The notes under the pieces are model-generated. The model made no database searches, was not told the origin of the DNA, and was given only the letters and a program-made list of their open reading frames with translations. Shown here in pieces: positions 1 through 37,033 of a stretch of 64,000 nt of DNA. How positions within the stretch are numbered: position 1 is the stretch's first letter; each line of letters begins with the position of its first letter. Origin of the DNA: Fistulifera solaris (lineage: Eukaryota); NCBI GenBank assembly GCA_030295235.1, contig AP026143.1:248001-312000 (forward strand). Reading direction: 5' to 3'. A program made the translations under genes and the position numbers.

Positions 1-2051
1 CCTCGTTTTGCCACCAGTCTCTTGTCTAAGCCCGGCAAAGACATGTCCCGCGCTGAAAACAGTATCAGACTTTCCAGCATTGATAAGAAAAATGTTTCTT
101 TGTCTTGCACCGTACCAGGGTATCCCAAGAAGTGCACCATATCACCAAGAAGAAAGTCTACAACAAAAGACGTCGACATAGGAAATGACCCCGATGCTTG
201 CTCGGATATCATCAGTCGATCAATCAATAGAACAAAGTTCTCAAGTAAAGAGGACACGTATTCTTTTCCCGAAGTTTTAACAGCAAATGGAAGCATGTAT
301 TTTATCATTTGCATTTCTGTTTCCATGGTTGGTAGGGCATAACAACTGAGAACTTGGTGTAGACTATGAAGTGCCGCAAGTCGCATTTGCGGTGATATAT
401 GTACAAGGGCACTCTTCACAGCAGCCAAAGGAATAGAGGAAGCAACCTGCACCTGAAATGTAGGATCCGGCTTAGTACAAAGTCGTACAATTTCCAATTT
501 CGCCCACAACACCCGATCACTGCGCGTCAGTCGATCGGCATCCCGTACCATGTCATCCGATGAAACACTGTACGATGCAAGCTCCTTCAGAAGCTCCGTG
601 AGCCCTCCTGGAACCGACGGAACGCGAGGTAAGCAAAAAGCAGCCACCTGTTGTCGGGACGAAAATGGCTGGATGGTCACGAGTGCGTGCGCCAAACTGG
701 GCACCCAGTCACTGTCCCGCGACACCAGCGTCTGCCACAAGTTGGCAATCGCTCCGCGATTGTTCCCTTGATTGCTTATGCCAACCAACAATTCGCTCAG
801 CAGCGTTGAAGAGACCGGAGTATCTACCAAAGGCAACACTGCTTCCAACGCAATGTATTTTCCCTTGCGATGCGGCGGTTGTTCCATGATTCGATCCACC
901 AGTGCCGGCAATTCTTGTGGTGGATGAACCTTGATCAAGGACTGAAAGAGAGCTGCCACCGCCTGAGCCAGCTTCCGACACGGAGGATTTTCCCACGATT
1001 CTAGCACAATTTCCATCAATTCATAGGGGACGGGAAACTCATGACTCGCACATCGACTGACGACCGTTCGCAGTGTTTTGAGTGCCATGGTGCGAACTTG
1101 AAGATCGGACGATTGCAATGCCGCACTTTCTAAAAATTCCATCACCGCGACGAGCTGTGTTTCTAGTTCTTCCCACAACACGGCGGCCACAAGACCCTGC
1201 AACAATACCACTTTGGGCAAGAGTGCCAACGAATGCAGATCTGGCCTCGACAATATATCATCCGTGCTTCCATCACGCTGCAACACAATCGCTCGGGCAT
1301 ACGCGACACACACAATGGGCAAGCGATCCGTCATGATGGCTCGACAAGTCAGCAATTGATACAAAAACGGAATCCATTGGGCCGCCACCGGTTGCGCTCG
1401 ATCGTCGTGAAGATTCTCTAAAATCGTCTTGACGACGGTCACCAACGCCACAGAATCTTGCATAAGATTCATGAACGACTGATCCAATATAGTTATTTCG
1501 GATAACTGGGTAGAGTATTGTTGTGCATAAAAGAAAAGAACGTTCAGGGTGTCCATTTGTACGGCCACGTCGAGCGACATCCAACTCAACGCTTCGGCTA
1601 TGGACGAGACCGGATCCTTCCAACAACACGTCGATGGAACGGACGCCAAAATGGACTGATACACAGCTTCATCTTCTTCGGTGGCTCGCAACAAAGACAA
1701 AACAGATTGCAGAGCTTTTCGTAACGGCAAGGGCGTTCTGTAAGATAACATCCATTCCAACAGCAGTCGATACAACGCCGGATCAATAACGTCGTTTGGT
1801 TGTTGTAAGACCCAACTTTTGAAGGCGTGCAATGCGTGCAATTGTTCTTTGATGGATGATGCTGTTGTTAACGCGTGAATCAGTGGCATCTCCTTTCGAA
1901 AAAGATCCACGGCTTGCTGCACGGAAGCGGTGGTCGTTCCGCCGCCTTGCCAACGTGCTTGATGGATGCACCCATCGTGCGGAAACGGAATGGGATCATC
2001 TTTCTGGACGGAAAGCTGTTTCTTGTTCTTCCTCTTGTGGGTCATTACCAT
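1..2051 (-). CDS. THADA: THADA/TRM732-like ARM-repeat tRNA 2'-O-methylation cofactor, 5' part (runs off window start)
   Basis: Manually translated minus-strand frame from ATG 2051/2045 (MVMTHKRKNKK...) continuing to base 1; missing from the ORF track because no stop lies in the window. Contains THADA-like segments WENPP...PPHRKGKYIALEAVL, ALVHISPQMRLAAL and LGYPGT. Confidence 0.7.
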   Translation of the reverse strand, partial: MVMTHKRKNKKQLSVQKDDPIPFPHDGCIHQARWQGGGTTTASVQQAVDLFRKEMPLIHALTTASSIKEQLHALHAFKSWVLQQPNDVIDPALYRLLLEWMLSYRTPLPLRKALQSVLSLLRATEEDEAVYQSILASVPSTCCWKDPVSSIAEALSWMSLDVAVQMDTLNVLFFYAQQYSTQLSEITILDQSFMNLMQDSVALVTVVKTILENLHDDRAQPVAAQWIPFLYQLLTCRAIMTDRLPIVCVAYARAIVLQRDGSTDDILSRPDLHSLALLPKVVLLQGLVAAVLWEELETQLVAVMEFLESAALQSSDLQVRTMALKTLRTVVSRCASHEFPVPYELMEIVLESWENPPCRKLAQAVAALFQSLIKVHPPQELPALVDRIMEQPPHRKGKYIALEAVLPLVDTPVSSTLLSELLVGISNQGNNRGAIANLWQTLVSRDSDWVPSLAHALVTIQPFSSRQQVAAFCLPRVPSVPGGLTELLKELASYSVSSDDMVRDADRLTRSDRVLWAKLEIVRLCTKPDPTFQVQVASSIPLAAVKSALVHISPQMRLAALHSLHQVLSCYALPTMETEMQMIKYMLPFAVKTSGKEYVSSLLENFVLLIDRLMISEQASGSFPMSTSFVVDFLLGDMVHFLGYPGTVQDKETFFLSMLESLILFSARDMSLPGLDKRLVAKR

Positions 2052-28020: not shown

Positions 28021-28640
28021 ATGTCAAGCAACAAAACTTCAGATGAGGCTTCTAGAAACGATTTGTCGCAAGCCGGAGCCGTGAGCGCAGACGAACAAGC
28101 GGCCCGTACCTTTACGTCATGGACCAACTGACGACACTCTACGGCTTCGCTCCTTCGGTCGCGGAACAAGCGGTTGAAGCCGTCGGTGCTGACGCGGAAG
28201 CATGTTGTACTTATATTCTGGATCATCAATTAGCCGAAGATCAAGGAGGTCCCGTATTTCCGGTCGATCACTGTCCCCATTTGAATATACAGATCACCAT
28301 CGACGCACTGCCTCCGCTTCCGCAAGCTACGTCGTGTTCACACGTCTCGGACGGAACAAGAACCGGTCGTTTGAAAGCTACCACTAGCGACGATGGGTAT
28401 TCGTGTCCATCGAGCAACGAGAATTGGATCTGTTTGGAGTGTGGAGTTATTCGTTGTAGTCGATACGCCAATGCACACGCTACCGCCCATTTTGAAGCTT
28501 CGGGTCATTCGACGGTCATCAGTTTGGCGGATTTGTCAGTCTGGTGTTACCAGTGTCAAGCCTATGTTGCTAATCGAGACAACCAAACGCTATGTGGTCT
28601 ACTGGAAGAATTGGAAAGAGGAAGTTTTCAAATGAATGAT
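28021..28640 (+). CDS. UBP-type zinc-finger protein with N-terminal UBA-like segment; ends approximate, apparent frameshifts
   Basis: CPH...ENWICLECG...CSRYANAH...HF...H...SLADLSVWCYQCQAYV is a ZnF-UBP (HDAC6-like) pattern. Confidence 0.75.
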
Positions 28641-28709
28641 GAACAAAATATTATGTATCGTCACAAAAAATACTCGACAAGCAGAATCAAAACGTTGCAA
28701 ATGCAGCTT

Positions 28710-30704
28710 CTAATAGCTCTCATCGGCTTCCTTGTCAACAGGAGCTTCATCTTCATTCTCATCTTTCTGAAGAACTTTGACTTTCGTTTCGTGGTCGTAA
28801 ATGATGGCTTTGCCCGACTCATCGAACTTCAAAACTTGCTGATCGGCCGGCAGAATCAAGTTCAACAACATGGCGACCACCGTTCCCACACAATACCCGG
28901 TCGACAAGAAAATAGATACGCCATTGCGGATGCCCTTGAGAGATTCGGAACAGTCCTCGCATCTCCAAAAGTTGGCCGTGTACGACGACGCACGCATATC
29001 TTGAAAGGCAAACGGCCAGACACTGACACCGACACCAATCGCCAGCGACAAGGCCAAAATGAACTTGTTGCGACGGGAATGCAAATCAATGTTGCCAGTC
29101 AAGGCGATGCCCGAGGCCAGGACGTTAGCGAAAAGAAAGATCGTCATGCCGCCAATGACACAGTCGGGGATGCTGGTTATGACGCCCGCGAATTTACTCA
29201 GAACGCCCATGGTAATTAACCAGAAAGCACACGCATATCCGGATCGACGCGAAGCGCACTTGGTGAGGGAGATCACTCCGTTGTTTTGTGAAAACGTCGT
29301 ATTGGGCATGGAGGTGAAGAGACCCGACAAGATGGAGCAGAAAGCATCCGAAGTGAGTCCACCTTGCACACTTCCTTCGTAGTCTTCCGTGTCCGTGGGC
29401 AAGTCGGATGCTTCGAACGTAGCCGTAATGTCCCCCACCGTCTCGACTGTGGTGACAAGGTAGGCAATCAACATCGGAATAACTGCCGGTCCGTAAACTC
29501 CGAGGGGAAAGGTTTCGACCCACAAGAACGTGATGGGGTCAGCATCGGCAATCTTGTCTTTCGTTACATACTGGAGGCCATTGTAGTCCGAAACAGCAGC
29601 GATAAAGTAACCGAACATCAAGGCAATAAAGACGTTGCAATTCTTCATGAAGACGCTTCCAAATAATTCGATAAACACCAACATAACCATGACAGACGCA
29701 CCCAATCCAATGTATTCGGTGCTTCCAAAGCCAAGTGCGGTTTCGCCGTTTGTACAGGCCGGACCAGGCGGAGGAAACGTACCATTGTTGGCGTAAAAGG
29801 CATCTAACTGACTGTGTTCCTTCCAAACCATTTCGGCGCAAACGACACCTCCACCCCAGTACTTCATCCCGTTTCCGGTCAAGCCCACACCGATCAAAAT
29901 GACCGTGACGGCTGTCACCAACGGAGGGAAGAGTGACTTGATGTATTTGATGGGCATAACCGAGAAGAACACTTCGAGAAATCCACAAACCATGGCCGTG
30001 CCCAAAACTTTGCCATAGGCTTCGCGACCATCGATGCCATCCTCCTGTTGTGAATTGCAAACGTCAATAAGTGAGCTGGCACAGAATTTATGGAGGAATA
30101 AAAAGCGTGGAACTTTTGCTTACCTTCATCTGGGCCACCGCAATTTCGAAAATAGGAAGAAACGTGAAAGACGTACCCTGTTCGGTGCAACGAGTGTTAA
30201 GCGAGTGTTTCGACAGTAGTTGTCGTGTTCGATACAACTGTTCACTTACCATCACAGAGAGGACTCCACTACCCAAGTACAGTTGACGCCCCCAAAGCTT
30301 TTCCGTGAACGGAATGGGAAACTTGGAAAGGTTGATCAAGCTGCAAATCCCCGAAGAGATCAACGCCGCCGAAATGGCGTACTGCTCTAACGGGGGGCAA
30401 AGGGAAAGCCGCAAACGGCAAAGCGGAACACGACGAGGGAGGTGTGATGAGTCCTCCTACCATGGCGAAAGCGTGCTGGAGGCCCATAATAAGAGCTAGA
30501 AGAATAGGAATTGGCTCATCTGAAGGAACGTTTAGATGTTCGACCGGAGCAAGTGCGTAGCTGGTACCCCTTTCACAACTACTCACCTCTTCCGTAAAAG
30601 TTCAGTGCAGCTTTGGGGGCTCGACTGAAGGGATTCATCGGCACGCACATGGAAGCGTAGTCATAGCGCTCGCTGTCCCCAATGAACAACTCTTTTAAAC
30701 CCAT
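28710..30704 (-). CDS. NCS2/NAT-family xanthine/uric acid (purine) permease, multi-exon
   Basis: MGLQHAFAMVGG, ETVGD and the NAT signature FSQNNGVISLT; introns near 30580 and 30045-30248; small indels ~30400-30440. Confidence 0.9.
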
Positions 30705-31349
30705 GGTTTTCGTCGTCGACAGTTCACCAGTAAGAAAGACGCAGAAATAATATGGAGAGTGACGACGATGCCGAATGAGAGAAAACAAACTTCACGCGAA
30801 TTTATGAGAGGAGCCGGAAAAGATTTTGTTCCCAAACGCATTCGACCCCGTAGGAAGGTTACGTAGAACTCCCGAAAACACTTTCCGACTCATTATTTTT
30901 CCGCTCTTTACTGTTTTCACGATTGTAGCTTTATTTAGTATACTTCGAATTACACTACACGGAAAAGGCGCATTCTTTACTTATATCTGATTTCGTTCCG
31001 ATCGTCTGAGTATACAGAAAGCAGTAAAACTGGGTCCTACCAAAGTACATTTAAAATGATAGTCGGCGATCTATGTGTCAGCAAATTCTCGAAAGACAGA
31101 TGCCACAAAGATACCGCGCCGCCAAACTTCTGCGTTTTTGCTGGGTAGATGGTAGATTTTGGCAACCTTCACTGAAAAATTCCGACAAAGATACTGCCGT
31201 CTTCTGGTGACGGAAGATGAGAAGAATAAAGATAACGATTTCTACATGAGTGTTACGAAACGGACGGCAACGAAATTCTCCTTTTAGTGCAAGGGCGCTC
31301 GATTGCGTTCTGAAGATCTTGTGGGCTTGCGCCTTCTGTACGTTCATTC

Positions 31350-31373
31350 GAAGAAGAAGAAGAAGAAGAAGAA
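31350..31373 (+). repeat. (GAA)8 microsatellite abutting the deaminase ATG
   Basis: Direct reading of the sequence. Confidence 0.9.
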
Positions 31374-32013
31374 TGTCGGTTGTGATTGATGAATCTCTTC
31401 AAAAAGCCCCACTCACGGCCACTCCTGCCGAGCTAAAGCGGATGTTGCAGATCATTAGGGAAGAAATATTTCCTGTGACGGTACAAGGTGTTGCCGATGG
31501 CAATAAAGTGTTTGGGGCTGCTATTTTGGACAAAGACTTTGTTACCACGTGTGTGGAAACAAACCGCGAGACAACTTGCCCGCTCTTTCACGGTGAAGTA
31601 CACGCCATCTATCAGTGGTCCAAGATAGTCGAACCGTCGCAACGTGGCCCCCTGGCACAATCGGCCAACTTTTGGCGACGCACGAACCATGCTGCATGTG
31701 TGTGAGCAGCATCTTGTGGTCAGGTTTTCAAAAAGTTTTTTATTTCTTCCCTTACTCGGTGACCACGGCGCAAGGTATACCCCATGATGTGCGCACGATG
31801 CATGAATTGTGGGGAGTGCCGACGTATCGGAAGCAGAATCGGTATCTCAGCACGGCATGTATCATGGATCTTATCGAGGAACTGCCAGAAGGATCGGAAA
31901 AAGAAGAACTATTGAAATTGCAGAAAGAGCTCTCAGCGGACTACGACAGACTTTCTAACAAATACCATACCGAGAAGGTCGACAATAAAGACAATAGTTT
32001 GGTGCTGGCATAG
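31373..32013 (+). CDS. Cytidine-deaminase-fold nucleobase/nucleoside deaminase (guanine deaminase-like); apparent frameshift ~31670
   Basis: GNKVFGAAIL, PLFHGE and ATHEPCCMC zinc motifs; frame restored by one extra T. Confidence 0.8.
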
Positions 32014-32634
32014 AAAGACAACGTGTGAAGGAGGTTTTGACCATTCGGTTTTGAAGCTATCAAGTTTCATGGCAGTGAGTATTGAAGCATCTAATTGACG
32101 AGGTCCACGCAACTAATGATGAAAAAACAGCCGACCCTATCCGCAAGGAAAAGGTACGACACTTGAGATTTTGAATTAGATCATCTTAGTTACTTTACCT
32201 CTCGGTTCTTGTAGTTTAGTCGGAAGAGTCCGGTCCAATTTTCTGATGTTGATTAATGATCGGCTATGTAATTTCGCCTTTTCCTAAGTATCAGTACCGG
32301 TTTCGCTCCCAAATGAGTGCTTGAGTACCTCTAAGGACCTCTCTTTTGATTCGCATCAAGTCTGCGATCACGAAGAACAGAAGCGAACCCATGTCAAAAA
32401 GTGTCGAGTTCGCAAACTTTCGATTGTGTTCATGATAGAAGCGACAACCTGTCGACGGAGATATTCATGCAGAATAAAAAGCCTTCATGAAAGCACTCAA
32501 CGAACAAGATCGAACGGGGTTGAAGCGCTTATTCCTGAGGGATGGGCACTCCTAGAACCCTCATTTTCAATTACGCAACACAATATAGCCAACTGCTTCA
32601 TTACGTATTACATTCTTTGACTTTGAATTAACAA

Positions 32635-34860
32635 ATGATATTAAAGACTGCTATCGACAACCTCTCTACTTCCGCGAAAGTATTGGCGCTGCAGAAGTCT
32701 TACTCAGAGAGTACTTGCGATATGTCGAGTGAAAGGGAATATGCAAAGAAGAAGGCCCGCGGCAACAACGTGTGGTATCGGCATGTTCTCAAACCCCTCC
32801 TGTGGATCCAGCGAAGCAATCGTGCAATGGAAGAAGCCTTTACGCGAAGAGTATATTTACCTGCTGGAATACCGGTCGAAGAGTTTCATATTTCTCTCCA
32901 CGATGCTTGCTCGCCCGAATACTCACCATTCATTGGCCTCTTGTTTGCCAGAAACAATATGATTGAAAATCTTTACAAGTATGGAGACCTGACCGAACCT
33001 TTGACTCAACTTGTCCATCACCTATTTCACATGCTTCCAGGCGGAGAAATTCAACCCACTCATGTGCATCGAAATGCTACGGCACATCTATCGGCGGCCA
33101 TTGTGGGGGCTCTGTTAGAGGAGTGGCATCGAATACCTTCCGATCAACATCTAGCTGCTCGCTTCCAAAAGTGTATCGCTGAACACAAAGACTATCAAGC
33201 AGGACGAAAGGAAGCTCGCGATGTTTTGGAGAAAGCTCAGCAAACCCAGCGAGACTTGATTCAAAAAGACGAGGCTTCAGAGCCGTACCGGGACGAAATT
33301 AAAAGAATCGAAGGTGACGTTATCAAGTATAATAAGCATCTCTTAAAACGCATGGGACCCGATGAAAGTGAAGAAGAGAAAAAGATTATCGAACTAATAA
33401 TTGAAAAAGGCAAGCAGCAAGTGGAAGAACTACGAGCGAAGTACATTGTAACGAGCGCAGATAAGAAAGAAGCGAGGAAGGCAGTGAAACGAGCCGAGGA
33501 TGCTTTAAAACAGGAACAAGAGAATTTAAAAGAATTTGCTCAGGTACTTGCTGCGTGTTTCGGTGAGTACGAGGCATCCTCAAGTGACAAACCACAGTCA
33601 CGTATCAACACTACCGCAATTCTCCTTGCTTTTATGTGGCGCAAATACGATCATCTTCCCGCATTGGGACCCTATTATCAATCTTTGCGTCATATGGGGA
33701 AGCTGAAGATGCCTATTCAGGACATCTTATCATTGTTAGATCGACGATATAGCAAAAGTCACGCGCTCGTGGACAACGACAAGAAGAGACGGTTTAGGGT
33801 ATTTGGACGGGTTCGTCGCCCTTCTTGGCCTTCGAATAAAGTTGTCGAAGCGACATTGGTTGTCGCAGGTCCTCCTAGTGCGCTGGATCGACCACCTGTG
33901 ATTCCATTCTCCTATGTAACCTGGGCTGCTTACAGTAAGTTTCCAGATTGTGGCGAAACGGCGCTTCGAAACTTGATGAATCAAATTCTGTTTCGCGCTG
34001 ATACGCAGATGTTTGATGCTGACCTTCTGGTTGAACTGAAGGAAAAGTACTATCCGGACATCAGCCCTCGACTCATCCGCTTTTACCAACGCAATAGCTG
34101 TCCAAGGAATGCTACGGATCAAGCAATTTCATTGGAATGGATAAATGTGGCATCCAAGTTGAACACGGCGTTAAACATTACCCGGGGACCCAGGATTCGA
34201 TACAGACGGGAGGAGCTTGAACAAAATATTGCAAGTCCACTGAGCAATCTAATGCGGGTGATGAATGCTCTTTTCGGTATCCAGCCAGTAAATGACATGG
34301 CACAGCTTTTGCAGCTCATTAATCGCATCAATGAACTACGTCCCCGACAACGCTTGAACGTAGACTTGAAGAAGATCAAGCCCGATGGCTTTGGGACCTT
34401 ATCATTATCAGTGATTGACAAAACCGGCAAGATGGTCAAGTATGAATTGCACTCCTACAAGCCAGTTCATTTTGGGTTCATACAAGCTCATTCCTCATCT
34501 AGCCAGTCTTCCGACACAGAAAGGTACGAATACGATGCCTTCCGGAAGCTCATGCGTTATGCTAGTGGCGTTCATAATCCGCTCGAGGCTTCTATTGAAG
34601 ATCTCGGTCTGGCTTCTTTGTATGTCCCTTATCAACTACAAAATGGCTTTGTCGGAAAATACTTTCGAAGAACCCCTATTTACTACCCGCTTCTATTTGC
34701 TAACTTAGAAGACGATGCAGCAAAACAATGTGCTATCGATTGGGCAAAGGCCAGATACGATGAAACGAAAAGCCCTGAATTAGCTGCTTGGATCAGTCGG
34801 ATTGAAAACTATGTTGCGCCGAGCTTTGGTCCAATCAAAGAAGTATCGGAGGAGGTCTAG
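32635..34860 (+). CDS. Hypothetical 741-aa protein with coiled-coil insert and FPDCGET motif
   Basis: Long uninterrupted intronless ORF; function unknown (see findings). Confidence 0.85.
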   Translation: MILKTAIDNLSTSAKVLALQKSYSESTCDMSSEREYAKKKARGNNVWYRHVLKPLLWIQRSNRAMEEAFTRRVYLPAGIPVEEFHISLHDACSPEYSPFIGLLFARNNMIENLYKYGDLTEPLTQLVHHLFHMLPGGEIQPTHVHRNATAHLSAAIVGALLEEWHRIPSDQHLAARFQKCIAEHKDYQAGRKEARDVLEKAQQTQRDLIQKDEASEPYRDEIKRIEGDVIKYNKHLLKRMGPDESEEEKKIIELIIEKGKQQVEELRAKYIVTSADKKEARKAVKRAEDALKQEQENLKEFAQVLAACFGEYEASSSDKPQSRINTTAILLAFMWRKYDHLPALGPYYQSLRHMGKLKMPIQDILSLLDRRYSKSHALVDNDKKRRFRVFGRVRRPSWPSNKVVEATLVVAGPPSALDRPPVIPFSYVTWAAYSKFPDCGETALRNLMNQILFRADTQMFDADLLVELKEKYYPDISPRLIRFYQRNSCPRNATDQAISLEWINVASKLNTALNITRGPRIRYRREELEQNIASPLSNLMRVMNALFGIQPVNDMAQLLQLINRINELRPRQRLNVDLKKIKPDGFGTLSLSVIDKTGKMVKYELHSYKPVHFGFIQAHSSSSQSSDTERYEYDAFRKLMRYASGVHNPLEASIEDLGLASLYVPYQLQNGFVGKYFRRTPIYYPLLFANLEDDAAKQCAIDWAKARYDETKSPELAAWISRIENYVAPSFGPIKEVSEEV

Positions 34861-34978
34861 ACGTAAAGATGAAAATTAATTGGTTTATGATAATATATGA
34901 TACATAATAGCTATTCGTGACCCTCGACTGTTTTATGTTTGCCCGTGCACAATTCCATCGCCGTTTATATAATCAGAT

Positions 34979-35941
34979 TCAATCAATGCCGACATTTCGT
35001 TTGTGAACTGCAGAAATCATTCCCTCAAACGAATCCTGCCTTTCTCCATTCTCGATCAAGTCAATCGCCATTCCCATTTCGGCATCCGGTAGGGCCACCA
35101 GTTTCTCTAAAAAGTCTCTCAACACCGCATCTCGCAAGAGACCCAAATGCCCAATTTGGGGAACAATTTCGAGATGACAATTTTGCAACCGCGAATGGAC
35201 ATGCCTCGATATATCCACTGGTAGAACGGAATCATTCTCACCCACATAAATCAAAACAGGATGATGGATATCTCGTTCTATGAAAAAATCGTAAGGTGAA
35301 ATGTCCATGCGATAGTCATTCCGGACTCCGCGGAAGTTGTTGCGCGCCAACGGCAGACAGCACAAGCAGTACTGCAACATAAAGGGCAAGGCCTTCCCGA
35401 TGCAACACGTGTTGAACCACTTTTTGTTCGGTGCCGTGGCGTGTGCGTATTCGGGATCCGAAGACAAGAGCCCTACCGAGAGAACGCGTCCCAGTAAGTG
35501 CGCCGCACATCCCAACGCCAGCGGTCCTCCGCTGGAGTGTCCCATGATGTGAAATTTCTTCACTTGTAAGTGATCGGCTAATTGTTGAATGTCATGAGCG
35601 AACGATCGATGATCGTACGGCCTTGTGAAATTCCGCACCGGGCAATCCGAACCTTCGTAACCCGGCCGATTGATGCAAACGAGAATACAATCGGTCGGCG
35701 GCTCCGTCATGAGAAATGAGTTTCCCGTGAGAAACATAGCGTGCAAGGCAAATACGTAAGGAAGTGTGGGGTCTTTGGGTCCGTCTAAGAAATACGAAAG
35801 GGAACGTCCATCTTCCAGAATCAACGTTTCGCGTTGCAAAGCCGGATCCCACACGCCCTTGACCCGACGCTGCGTTTGCCATTCCTCCCGCCACCGCGAA
35901 ATGGGTATATGTAGATCAATAAAGACAGATCCTAAGACCAT
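34979..35941 (-). CDS. Alpha/beta hydrolase
   Basis: NRPGYEGS, nucleophile elbow GHSSG, GEND and IGHL. Confidence 0.85.
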   Translation of the reverse strand: MVLGSVFIDLHIPISRWREEWQTQRRVKGVWDPALQRETLILEDGRSLSYFLDGPKDPTLPYVFALHAMFLTGNSFLMTEPPTDCILVCINRPGYEGSDCPVRNFTRPYDHRSFAHDIQQLADHLQVKKFHIMGHSSGGPLALGCAAHLLGRVLSVGLLSSDPEYAHATAPNKKWFNTCCIGKALPFMLQYCLCCLPLARNNFRGVRNDYRMDISPYDFFIERDIHHPVLIYVGENDSVLPVDISRHVHSRLQNCHLEIVPQIGHLGLLRDAVLRDFLEKLVALPDAEMGMAIDLIENGERQDSFEGMISAVHKRNVGID

Positions 35942-36358
35942 GCTGTGTCTATGTATTCCATTCAGAACGATGTTTCATTTCTTTTTATTCAATGCAAAAC
36001 TGTCGATGTCAAAAATGAGAATTATTTTCGAAGAAGGCGATCTTTGCGTCTTGCGGATTGATCGAGTAACAGTCGTAGTCGTCACGGCACTGCGAGTATA
36101 CCTTTGGTAAGTAGTCGACCTTTTGGATCAGAAAGTGCAAGAGGAAAGTGTACACAGTCCGTCGTCAGTCCATGGTCAGTCCGCCTCTCGGAGTCGTCTG
36201 TGCGTCACACGGTTTAGGCCTACGCGGGACGGCGGACTGGTCGTCGTCATCCGTCATTCTTTTGGCCTCATCAACACTACAACAATACCAGGTACGGTAA
36301 CGTTTGTTGCATCGCAAGTCGAACTCTCCCATTTTGCAAACCCATCGAACTATCCATC

Positions 36359-37033
36359 ATGTCGGAGCTTAAAGAATACACATTAGAAGAAATTGCCAAG
36401 CACAATACTCAAGAGGATTGTTGGTTGATTATTGGAAATGCTAGCAACGGTGAGTCGACTCTTTTGTGTGTTTATACCTTTTCCCCTTTTGTCTGCAAGC
36501 GATAAACAAACGTGTTGCGTATCATTCCGTTTTCAGACCTGTTGATTGATGTTTCATTGTGTTCGAAAAACGAGGCGCTGCAGAAAAATTCTATATGCTC
36601 CAAAAGAGGTTACTTGTGTCGCATATACCTAAATGCCTCTCACCCGAATTTTGACGTCCCCTTCCCTTATTTTCAACTTTATTATTCGAATCACCTCATA
36701 ATAGGAGGACCCAAAGTTTACGATGTAACCAAGTACTTGGATGATCATCCCGGAGGCGCCGAAGTACTACTGGATGTGGCCGGACAAGATGCCGATGAAT
36801 TCTTCGAGGACATTGGTCACTCCAAGGAAGCGCGAAAAGAGCTGTCCAAGTACTTGATCGGAAATTTCAAGTTGGATGCGGCCGCTATGGAAAAGATGAA
36901 AGCCGCTGCGGAAAAGAGAAGTAAGAGTGAAGGTGGTATGGTCAGCACACTTCTCGTGGCTCTCATTGCTATTGTGGGGGTGGCCGTAGCATACTACAAA
37001 ACGCAACAGTCGGCAGGCGCTGAAGAAAAATAA
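36359..37033 (+). CDS. CYB5: Cytochrome b5, tail-anchored
   Basis: Exon 1 [26 protein letters not shown]; intron 36450-36704; VYDVT...HPGG...GHS; C-terminal TM helix. Confidence 0.92.

Follow-up and report, generated by a model that had tools for sequence, protein, structure and literature searches.

A transcribed diatom gene encodes a putative, very divergent papain-like cysteine hydrolase of a family shared with host-associated bacteria and giant viruses

The window analysed here is a 64,000-nucleotide stretch of the diatom Fistulifera solaris (GenBank assembly GCA_030295235.1, contig AP026143.1, positions 248,001 to 312,000), and all coordinates are counted from its first letter. It carries a gene for a 741-aa protein, most likely a deubiquitinase-type cysteine protease that is papain-like but very divergent. 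The parts of this proposal differ in strength: we consider it probable that the protein is some Cys/His enzyme on a papain-type scaffold, we lean towards a thiol hydrolase with a papain-type core (a peptidase or isopeptidase), and we offer ubiquitin or a ubiquitin-like protein (UBL) as its substrate as a reasoned but tentative guess. A papain-type thiol hydrolase seems the best explanation because a near-universal Cys and His are lost together and are predicted to sit at the canonical positions of their secondary-structure elements, because the core has a weak structural affinity for clan-CA peptidases, and because the family has an effector-like, multi-copy, ankyrin-fused distribution in associates of protists.

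The 741-aa diatom gene is real, expressed and unspliced. The evidence comes from four sequencing runs (X1-X4, 11-52 million letters each), which belong to one study and count as a single independent source. They contain 78-90% of the words sampled from 32400-35000, their RNA label being a program's guess, and for two further runs (X5 and X6) the share was only 0.05. Within the mapped region (31000-36500), X2-X4 cover approximately 32517/32564..34895 only (plus slightly further in X3), with a word depth of 260-1800 over the gene versus 0-41 on the flanking genes; contig depth is no gauge of expression level, and we use it solely to show that the cover is limited to the gene. X1 covers 29 of 30 bins evenly at a depth of approximately 11-56, behaving like DNA or a much deeper library. 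There are no splice joints among the contigs on this region, and overlapping contigs tile the entire open reading frame (ORF) colinearly. One X2 and one X4 contig stop at 34895 and then run into 21 and 24 A, respectively, and because the genome reads tatgatacat... after 34895, these poly(A) tails are non-templated. Gene-limited cover, a lack of joints and poly(A) tails together therefore mean that the gene is transcribed, polyadenylated 35 nt past its stop codon and unspliced. The initial annotation, made from the sequence of the window, had proposed an intronless 741-aa ORF and suggested an RNA-seq check: the reading frame stands, RNA-type contigs cover it end to end, and all of the motifs then listed are present in its translation.

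The 5' leader contains an upstream ORF of 29 codons (ATG at 32542, stop at 32629-32631), which is in frame with the main ORF and ends two codons before its ATG. The X2 contig beginning at 32517 contains this upstream ORF; the X4 contig, which begins at 32564, does not. Within the coding sequence, the stretch 34016-34335 occurs in two sequence versions with 7-15 differences, each at high depth in X1, X3 and X4, and contig breaks at 33882 and 33997 coincide with this two-version stretch. The versions are probably two alleles of the gene.

The protein had been described as an orphan, which was not borne out, as it has approximately 30 full-length relatives of its own type, and an exhaustive search of the wider family gave 110 matches. 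A word-indexed protein search gave 33 proteins including the query: the closest (P0002) is 87% identical, and the other 31 have 36-43% identity over 59-100% of the query, with most being 700-850 aa long and several lying on contigs of 0.5-1.9 Mb. We label this 33-protein set "diatom-type", a term which is extended to every row from the only relative that carries an organism name, the diatom Epithemia clementina. Judged by their sequences, these relatives look like diatom orthologues. In their alignment (A1), D438, C439, E441, A443, N446, N449 and Q450 are invariant, and KPVHF, NIASPL, YRR and an N-terminal LFHxLPGG..T-H block are near-invariant. Two diatom-type proteins from JGI (P0005 and P0025) are labelled "geranylgeranyl pyrophosphate synthase" and "RNase P protein component", which does not fit proteins whose alignments span 82-94% of the query and for which no Pfam domain is recorded; the source names are likely annotation errors.

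Conservation extends over nearly the entire protein (Table 1). The Cys motif, FPDCGETAL, begins at 33940 (with the C439 codon at 33949-33951) and the His motif, KPVHFGF, begins at 34459. A diatom-type profile of residues 1-400 also matches distant bacterial members, typically in two pieces (~70-190 and ~310-390), and because these matches flank the coiled-coil hairpin, the hairpin is the variable part. The VIA matches of the hairpin (residues 185-313) are themselves coiled-coil hairpins. In the helical segment which follows, L330, W335 and K337 are invariant in A1, and L330 is conserved in at least 90% of a 103-row alignment (A2; 103 of 134 proteins, with fragments left out). The C-terminal helical domain is common to the diatom-type proteins and mostly absent from distant members, whose matches mostly end at approximately position 220-230 of a query that starts at residue 400.

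Table 1. Features of the 741-aa protein gene and its transcript (window coordinates; A1, alignment of diatom-type proteins; pLDDT, predicted local distance difference test)
Feature	Coordinates	Strand	Basis
5' leader of transcript	32517..32634	+	leftmost RNA-type contig start 32517 (X2); another 32564 (X4)
Complete unspliced coding sequence, 741 aa + stop	32635..34860	+	ORF call; joint-free colinear contig tiling
Residues 1-40, poorly conserved N-terminus ending in basic patch KKKAR	32635..32754	+	pLDDT 38-60; gappy and variable in A1
Residues ~75-184, conserved N-terminal module: YSPxxG...NNxxxNLY, LFHxLPGGEIQPTH beta-hairpin	32857..33186	+	conserved in A1; predicted strands 131-133, 139-141
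Residues 185-313, long antiparallel helical (coiled-coil) hairpin	33187..33573	+	predicted helices 185-214, 216-239, 246-270, 274-313
Residues 314-399, conserved helical segment TTAILLAxxWRKYD, then low-confidence linker ~371-399	33574..33831	+	pLDDT 51-70 for 371-400
Residues 400-625, Cys/His core, putative papain-like catalytic core	33832..34509	+	core model pLDDT 90.6; search matches; fold matches
D438-C439-G440-E441, putative nucleophile Cys	33946..33957	+	N-terminus of predicted helix 439-452
H612, putative general-base His	34468..34470	+	first residue of predicted strand 612-621
Residues 627-724, C-terminal helical domain	34513..34806	+	predicted helices 627-645 to 714-724
3' untranslated region, 35 nt, poly(A) addition after 34895	34861..34895	+	contig ends X2, X4

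The wider family was found with an exhaustive phmmer search using residues 400-741 against 1.84 billion representatives. Of the 110 proteins with E<=1e-3, 44 had E<=1e-10 and 20 had E<=1e-30. Distant members are 600-1900 aa long, and their matches centre on query positions ~20-225, i.e., residues 419-624. The named sources are all bacterial metagenome-assembled genomes (MAGs), from Oligoflexia (P0069), Bdellovibrionia (P0134, P0064 and P0057), Myxococcota (P0058) and Oligoflexales (P0096). Scanning prokaryote genomes (a pattern plus tblastn with a 15-row bacterial alignment, one genome per species) yielded 40 loci, many of them in Oligoflexia, Bdellovibrionia and Bacteriovoracaceae MAGs. The scan also found the family in one MAG of candidate division TM6 (Dependentiae), in one Paracaedibacteraceae MAG and, with two loci, in Candidatus Odyssella thessalonicensis, an amoeba endosymbiont; uncultured Alphaproteobacteria, two Holophagaceae MAGs and other genomes account for the remaining loci. 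A metagenome scan for the family gave two loci, and further word-indexed searches added little, with two matches each. Among viral resources, IMG/VR gave two pattern matches, one of which was confirmed and lies on a contig of a giant-virus MAG, and BFVD has one structure at E<=1e-3, an uncharacterised Yasminevirus protein (E 1.2e-4, prob 1.00). The best ESM Atlas cosine (0.90) was to an unnamed, mostly Nucleocytoviricota cluster, a level that chance reaches in 4-10% of cases, and this match is a lead only. The initial annotation had named similar motif chains in Nematocida microsporidia, Dependentiae and giant viruses, and the TM6 MAG, the giant-virus MAG and the Yasminevirus protein agree with the last two of these. 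No match with an organism name is microsporidian, names being absent from most of the 110.

Several of these genomes carry the family in multiple copies. When five whole genomes were searched and N- and C-terminal matches in one open frame were merged, the distinct family frames numbered approximately six in an Oligoflexia MAG, five to six in a 1.6-Mb uncultured bacterium, three in TM6, five in Odyssella and two in the Paracaedibacteraceae MAG. In the Oligoflexia MAG (G001:C3:236400-247228), an 11-kb stretch contains three same-strand members (656-772 aa) in tandem, a case of recent local expansion. A 1380-aa metagenomic protein (P0068) contains the Cys-motif region twice (293-403 and 1111-1191) plus two N-terminal-module matches, an arrangement that reads as an internal duplication of the whole unit; its His column is Ser in the 137-row alignment described below.

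Domain libraries recognise little of the family beyond its repeats. Pfam scans of 40 distant members found C-terminal ankyrin repeats in eight, a sub-threshold Golgin_A5 match in one and nothing in the other 31, and NCBIfam scans of eight members gave weak AnkF and AnkG matches, confined to the ankyrin repeats. Over the core, Pfam (models to 2025) had no family in the 741-aa protein (E up to 10), in the 40 distant members or in 70 members at E<=10, and neither the UCH/USP profile (PF00443) nor the OTU profile (PF02338) matched in these scans. NCBIfam (release 20) likewise had no family over the core in the eight members, and searches of PDB sequences with phmmer and a profile gave coiled-coil noise only and no family for the core. 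Literature searches found no paper describing the family, nor one linking it with the large gene families of Nematocida, noting that the motif itself cannot be searched as text. Judging from these searches, the family, which diatoms share with host-associated bacteria and giant viruses, appears to be unnamed.

Conservation in the core was assessed with 137 non-identical domain rows (26 diatom-type and 111 others), each cut to 225 residues, starting shortly ahead of the Cys motif, and aligned with MAFFT L-INS-i. The diatom-type rows were hand-picked against redundancy from 42. Other proteins were kept if their match started no later than profile position 36 and had E<=1e-20, and locus ORFs if they had E<=1e-10; segments of less than 170 aa were dropped, and seven duplicates were removed (144 to 137). 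D438 and C439 are each conserved in 135 rows, E441 in 133, N446 in 130, W502 in 136, Y523 in 134, N538 in 131 and H612 in 127. Ten rows lack H612, six because of gaps (the fixed-length segment ended too early, or the protein is fragmentary) and four through substitution. The sole rows without C439 are P0130 and P0121, which have His and Pro instead, and both also lack H612, making them candidate pseudo-enzymes of the expanded bacterial or metagenomic set. All eight columns are also conserved in at least 90% of A2, and H612 is invariant in a 70-row alignment (A4). A lack of conservation had been named as a possible refutation of a catalytic Cys (DCGE) and His (PVHF), and both residues proved to be near-universal. 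In the strand after H612, the 137 rows have no conserved Asp, Asn or Gln, and positions 613 and 615 are hydrophobic.

AlphaFold2 (AF2) predicted the full protein from the 103-row alignment with a mean pLDDT of 87.8 and a predicted template modelling score (pTM) of 0.86, and residues 400-650 alone with values of 90.6 and 0.85. From its N-terminus, the full model consists of the low-confidence residues 1-40, a helical module with a beta-hairpin (131-141), the helical hairpin, further helices, the linker, a mixed alpha/beta region (400-625) and the C-terminal helices. C439 is predicted to be the first residue of its helix in both AF2 models (DSSP assignment, local pLDDT 96-98), and H612 to be the first residue of the last strand in a four-stranded sheet, following strands 573-577, 587-594 and 600-608. 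The models therefore place the two residues as papain-like enzymes do, with the Cys at the N-terminus of an alpha-helix and the His on a beta-strand downstream of that helix in the sequence.

Foldseek comparisons of the full and core models with the PDB gave nothing at E<=1e-3, and the proteins that were considered (Dicer, Tex, beta-lactamases and COMMD-like) were rejected, with template modelling (TM) scores of 0.06-0.2 and root-mean-square deviations of 14-30 A. A different structure search with the core model listed 50 matches, among which 27 align over more than 100 residues across model positions 17-222, and all of these 27 are papain-like cysteine peptidases. The majority are USP-type (USP30, 14, 18, 36, 16, 2, 11, 12, 5, 54, 28, USPL1, TssM, and SAGA and proteasome deubiquitinase chains), six rows are OTU proteins (SnOTU, OTUB1 in three rows, Lpg2529 and another OTU, at ranks 2, 5, 9, 11, 16 and 22), and the others are ZUFSP, the papain-like proteases of rubella, MERS, SADS and PEDV, and SpeB. 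The remaining 23 of the 50 listed matches cover 38-56 residues, consisting of a single long helix. In these predicted models, the structural affinity for clan-CA peptidases, mostly deubiquitinases, is thus exclusive, if weak.

Residue equivalences were taken from the first and last aligned positions only, with the ends assumed to be ungapped. This arithmetic puts H612 on what we take to be the catalytic His of USP14 (435) and OTUB1 (265), and the His also agrees for USP18, USP2, USP28, USPL1 and SpeB if the residue numbers that we assume for these are right. For USP12 (5l8w_A), model positions 35..222 align with chain positions 43..326, so C40 (C439) falls on residue 48 and H213 (H612) on residue 317; the USP12 triad is Cys48/His317/Asp333 (PMC7854729). 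For the rubella protease (7fav_A), model positions 20..221 align with chain positions 1136..1281, so H213 falls on residue 1273 and C40 near residue 1156; this enzyme has a dyad formed by the helix residue C1152 and the strand residue H1273, no third residue, and K48 deubiquitinase activity (PMC9271420). Such coincidences between alignment ends and catalytic residues are supportive, not decisive.

Four known systems help to place the protein. USP deubiquitinases (e.g., USP12, USP14 and USP2; PF00443) are like the core in having the Cys before the His, the Cys at a helix start and the His at a strand start in a C-terminal sheet. OTU deubiquitinases (OTUB1, SnOTU of Simkania, 8cmr, and Lpg2529 of Legionella, 6yk8) are like the family in that they occur as effectors of intracellular bacteria, as the family seems to, and they have an Asp close before the catalytic Cys, as with D438/C439 in the diatom protein; we assume Asp88/Cys91 of OTUB1 to be the counterpart. 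The rubella protease RubPro is a viral polyprotein protease with two zinc sites and no detectable sequence similarity, and its match covers approximately half of the core. Ankyrin effectors of the Legionella Ank/Leg type, from amoeba-associated bacteria, are like the bacterial members in their C-terminal ankyrin repeats (8 of 40) and multi-copy genomes, but unlike the diatom protein, which has no ankyrin repeats; the bacterial members are candidate effectors.

We propose the following as a working model. The ORF, its expression, the existence of the family, the conservation of residues and their secondary-structure placement are shown by the analysis; the class of fold, the catalysis, the substrate and the direction of transfer are inferred from it. 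The protein would be a soluble multidomain enzyme, with residues 400-625 forming a very divergent cysteine hydrolase of the papain-like (clan-CA) type. C439, at its helix start, would act as the nucleophile and H612, at its strand start, as the general base, while the invariant neighbours D438, E441, N446, Y523 and N538 would shape the active site. With no acidic or amide residue conserved after the His, catalysis may rely on a dyad, as it does in the rubella protease, or one of D438, E441, N446, Y523 and N538 may take part. The most likely activity would be cleavage of the peptide or isopeptide bond after ubiquitin or a UBL, i.e., that of a deubiquitinase or UBL protease, and the N-terminal module and coiled-coil hairpin may recognise the substrate or a partner. 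In bacteria living with or in eukaryotic cells, the family is multi-copy and often ankyrin-fused, an effector-like architecture, and giant viruses have members as well. A diatom ancestor most likely took one copy from a Bdellovibrionota- or Myxococcota-like bacterium and would have retained it as a conserved, expressed gene.

This last step is based on a tree of the 137 rows (203 columns), made with an IQ-TREE quick search under LG+G4 with the Shimodaira-Hasegawa-like approximate likelihood-ratio test (SH-aLRT) as its sole support measure, and left unrooted. The 26 diatom-type rows form one clade (SH-aLRT 98), which is joined to a 20-row group (99) that includes MAG proteins from Bdellovibrionia (P0057 and P0064), Myxococcota (P0058) and Oligoflexia (P0069). 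Another protein in this group (P0049) lies on a dense contig with genes for a 2-hydroxyacid dehydrogenase, a cysteinyl-tRNA synthetase, an amidohydrolase and a glutamate-synthase-domain protein, a layout which is bacterial. The protein of the giant-virus MAG falls in another part of the tree, in a group (88) with Oligoflexia and Myxococcota proteins, and the TM6, Odyssella, Paracaedibacteraceae and most Bdellovibrionota proteins sit in the other half. The diatom-type core is 33-38% identical to one bacterial subgroup, which is closer than bacterial subgroups are among themselves. Transfer from bacteria to diatoms is the parsimonious reading, given the large diversity of the bacterial members, the single, compact diatom clade and its closeness to one bacterial subgroup; the position of the clade suggests that the transfer was ancient. 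The initial annotation had called the gene patchily distributed and possibly horizontally acquired: members occur in bacteria, giant viruses and diatoms, and the single diatom clade beside a bacterial group favours acquisition, with the direction depending on an unrooted tree.

Several points weigh against a papain-type peptidase of bacterial origin. The canonical triad is incomplete, with no conserved Asp/Asn after the His and no obvious oxyanion Gln/Asn before the Cys, and the candidate third or oxyanion residues lie elsewhere (D438, E441, N446 and N538, each in 130-135 of 137 rows). The structural equivalences depend on alignment ends, and the Cys end is off by 8-16 residues in several rows. 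Asp, Cys, Glu and His residues typically bind metals as well, and protease activity and substrate are both deduced from sequence and models. On the side of origin, a source name or gene context is available for only 5 of the 20 sister-group rows, a single diatom-type protein carries an organism name, and a quick, unrooted LG+G4 tree means that the direction of transfer is inferred.

The same scaffold and Cys/His pair could serve another chemistry on a eukaryotic protein or lipid, with the protein being a deamidase (like Cif/CHBP or OspI), an amidase or lipase of the NlpC/P60 type, a transglutaminase, or an acyl- or acetyltransferase. We consider this rival unlikely. In its favour, neither the conservation nor the secondary-structure evidence separates the chemistries that use a papain-type Cys-His pair, and the canonical third and oxyanion residues of peptidases are not evident in the 137 rows. 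The Asp directly before the Cys also recalls the "DCSG" Cys motif of NlpC/P60 enzymes, and effector families of intracellular bacteria include enzymes of these kinds. Of the earlier claim of a papain-like protease, deubiquitinase or deamidase, the first two options are the preferred reading here, and the deamidase is kept as a lesser rival. There is a slim chance that D438, C439, E441 and H612 instead form a metal site (Zn, Fe or similar) in a metalloenzyme or metal-stabilised binding module: they represent the four commonest metal ligands in proteins, all are conserved in 127-135 of 137 rows, and no search (Pfam, NCBIfam or PDB) linked the sequence to a thiol peptidase family. However, three of these residues fall within four consecutive positions at a helix N-terminus, which is poor geometry for binding one ion, Cys at a helix start with His at a strand start is the papain-type signature, and the structural neighbours are thiol peptidases (with the caveat that a bound metal would not appear in an AF2 model). 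A non-catalytic scaffold or adaptor, in which the coiled-coil hairpin and helical domains bind proteins and the Cys and His are structural, would suit a protein that is over half helical, has a long coiled-coil hairpin and matches no known enzyme family by sequence. We regard it as very improbable: the hairpin is the least conserved part, whereas polar and nucleophilic residues are near-universal across proteins only 17-25% identical overall, and the Cys and His are lost together in both exceptions, which therefore points to an active site and not a structural core.

With respect to origin, the family might instead descend vertically from an ancient eukaryotic ancestor, or have moved from eukaryotes to bacteria and viruses. 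If the tree were rooted on the diatom stem, the non-diatom rows would all fall into one clade; the GC of the gene (0.45-0.46) is the same as that of its surroundings, the gene has a eukaryotic 5' leader and poly(A) tail, and transfers from hosts to symbionts and to giant viruses are common. We nevertheless judge this rather improbable, as all named or context-typed rows outside the diatom-type clade are bacterial or viral, bacterial diversity in the tree far exceeds that of diatoms, and much less separates the diatom-type clade from one bacterial subgroup than separates the bacterial subgroups from one another. Among the family rows, most of the metagenomic ones being without names, we identified no further eukaryote.

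If the papain-type reading is right, what is new is the family and not the kind of enzyme: a widespread thiol hydrolase family without a solved structure, whose core no Pfam, NCBIfam or PDB entry covers. It would tie together predatory and endosymbiotic bacteria, giant viruses and a major algal lineage, all of which interact with protists. Microbiologists would gain a candidate effector family, multi-copy and fused to ankyrin repeats, in Dependentiae, Paracaedibacteraceae and Oligoflexia, and diatom biologists a conserved, expressed gene that probably came from bacteria and may target ubiquitin-like pathways. In enzymology, a D-C-x-E/H-F site without an obvious third residue would widen the range of papain-type active sites. 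A bolder and doubtful version is that the protein is the founding eukaryotic member of an undescribed deubiquitinase/UBL protease class, defined by a D-C-x-E ... H-F site, an N-terminal recognition module and a coiled-coil hairpin. Against protist hosts, the class would be used in multi-copy, ankyrin-fused form by giant viruses and by predatory and intracellular bacteria (Bdellovibrionota, Dependentiae and Paracaedibacteraceae). An early capture of one copy would have given diatoms a gene that they then domesticated for ubiquitin-like signalling of their own.

The surroundings of the gene show no sign of operon-like or functional linkage to the neighbouring ORFs, and the family occurs only once in the window. 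A gene for an alpha/beta-hydrolase (34979-35941) follows downstream on the other strand. Approximately 3.4 kb upstream, a stop-to-stop ORF on the plus strand (28056-29219) encodes zf-UBP, the Zn finger of ubiquitin hydrolases (E 7.8e-20), and it is overlapped on the minus strand by a xanthine/uracil permease ORF (28710-30119, E 4.9e-52); the presence of this ubiquitin-related neighbour is probably coincidental. Two ORFs closer to the gene (31373-31705 and 31696-32013, both on the plus strand) have no Pfam match. Relative to the window, contigs carry an extra base at 31669-31671, which is a T after 31669 in X1 (depth 23.6/42.5) and a C after 31671 in X2 (41/41). This base, whether an assembly indel or an allele, would join the two ORFs into one gene.

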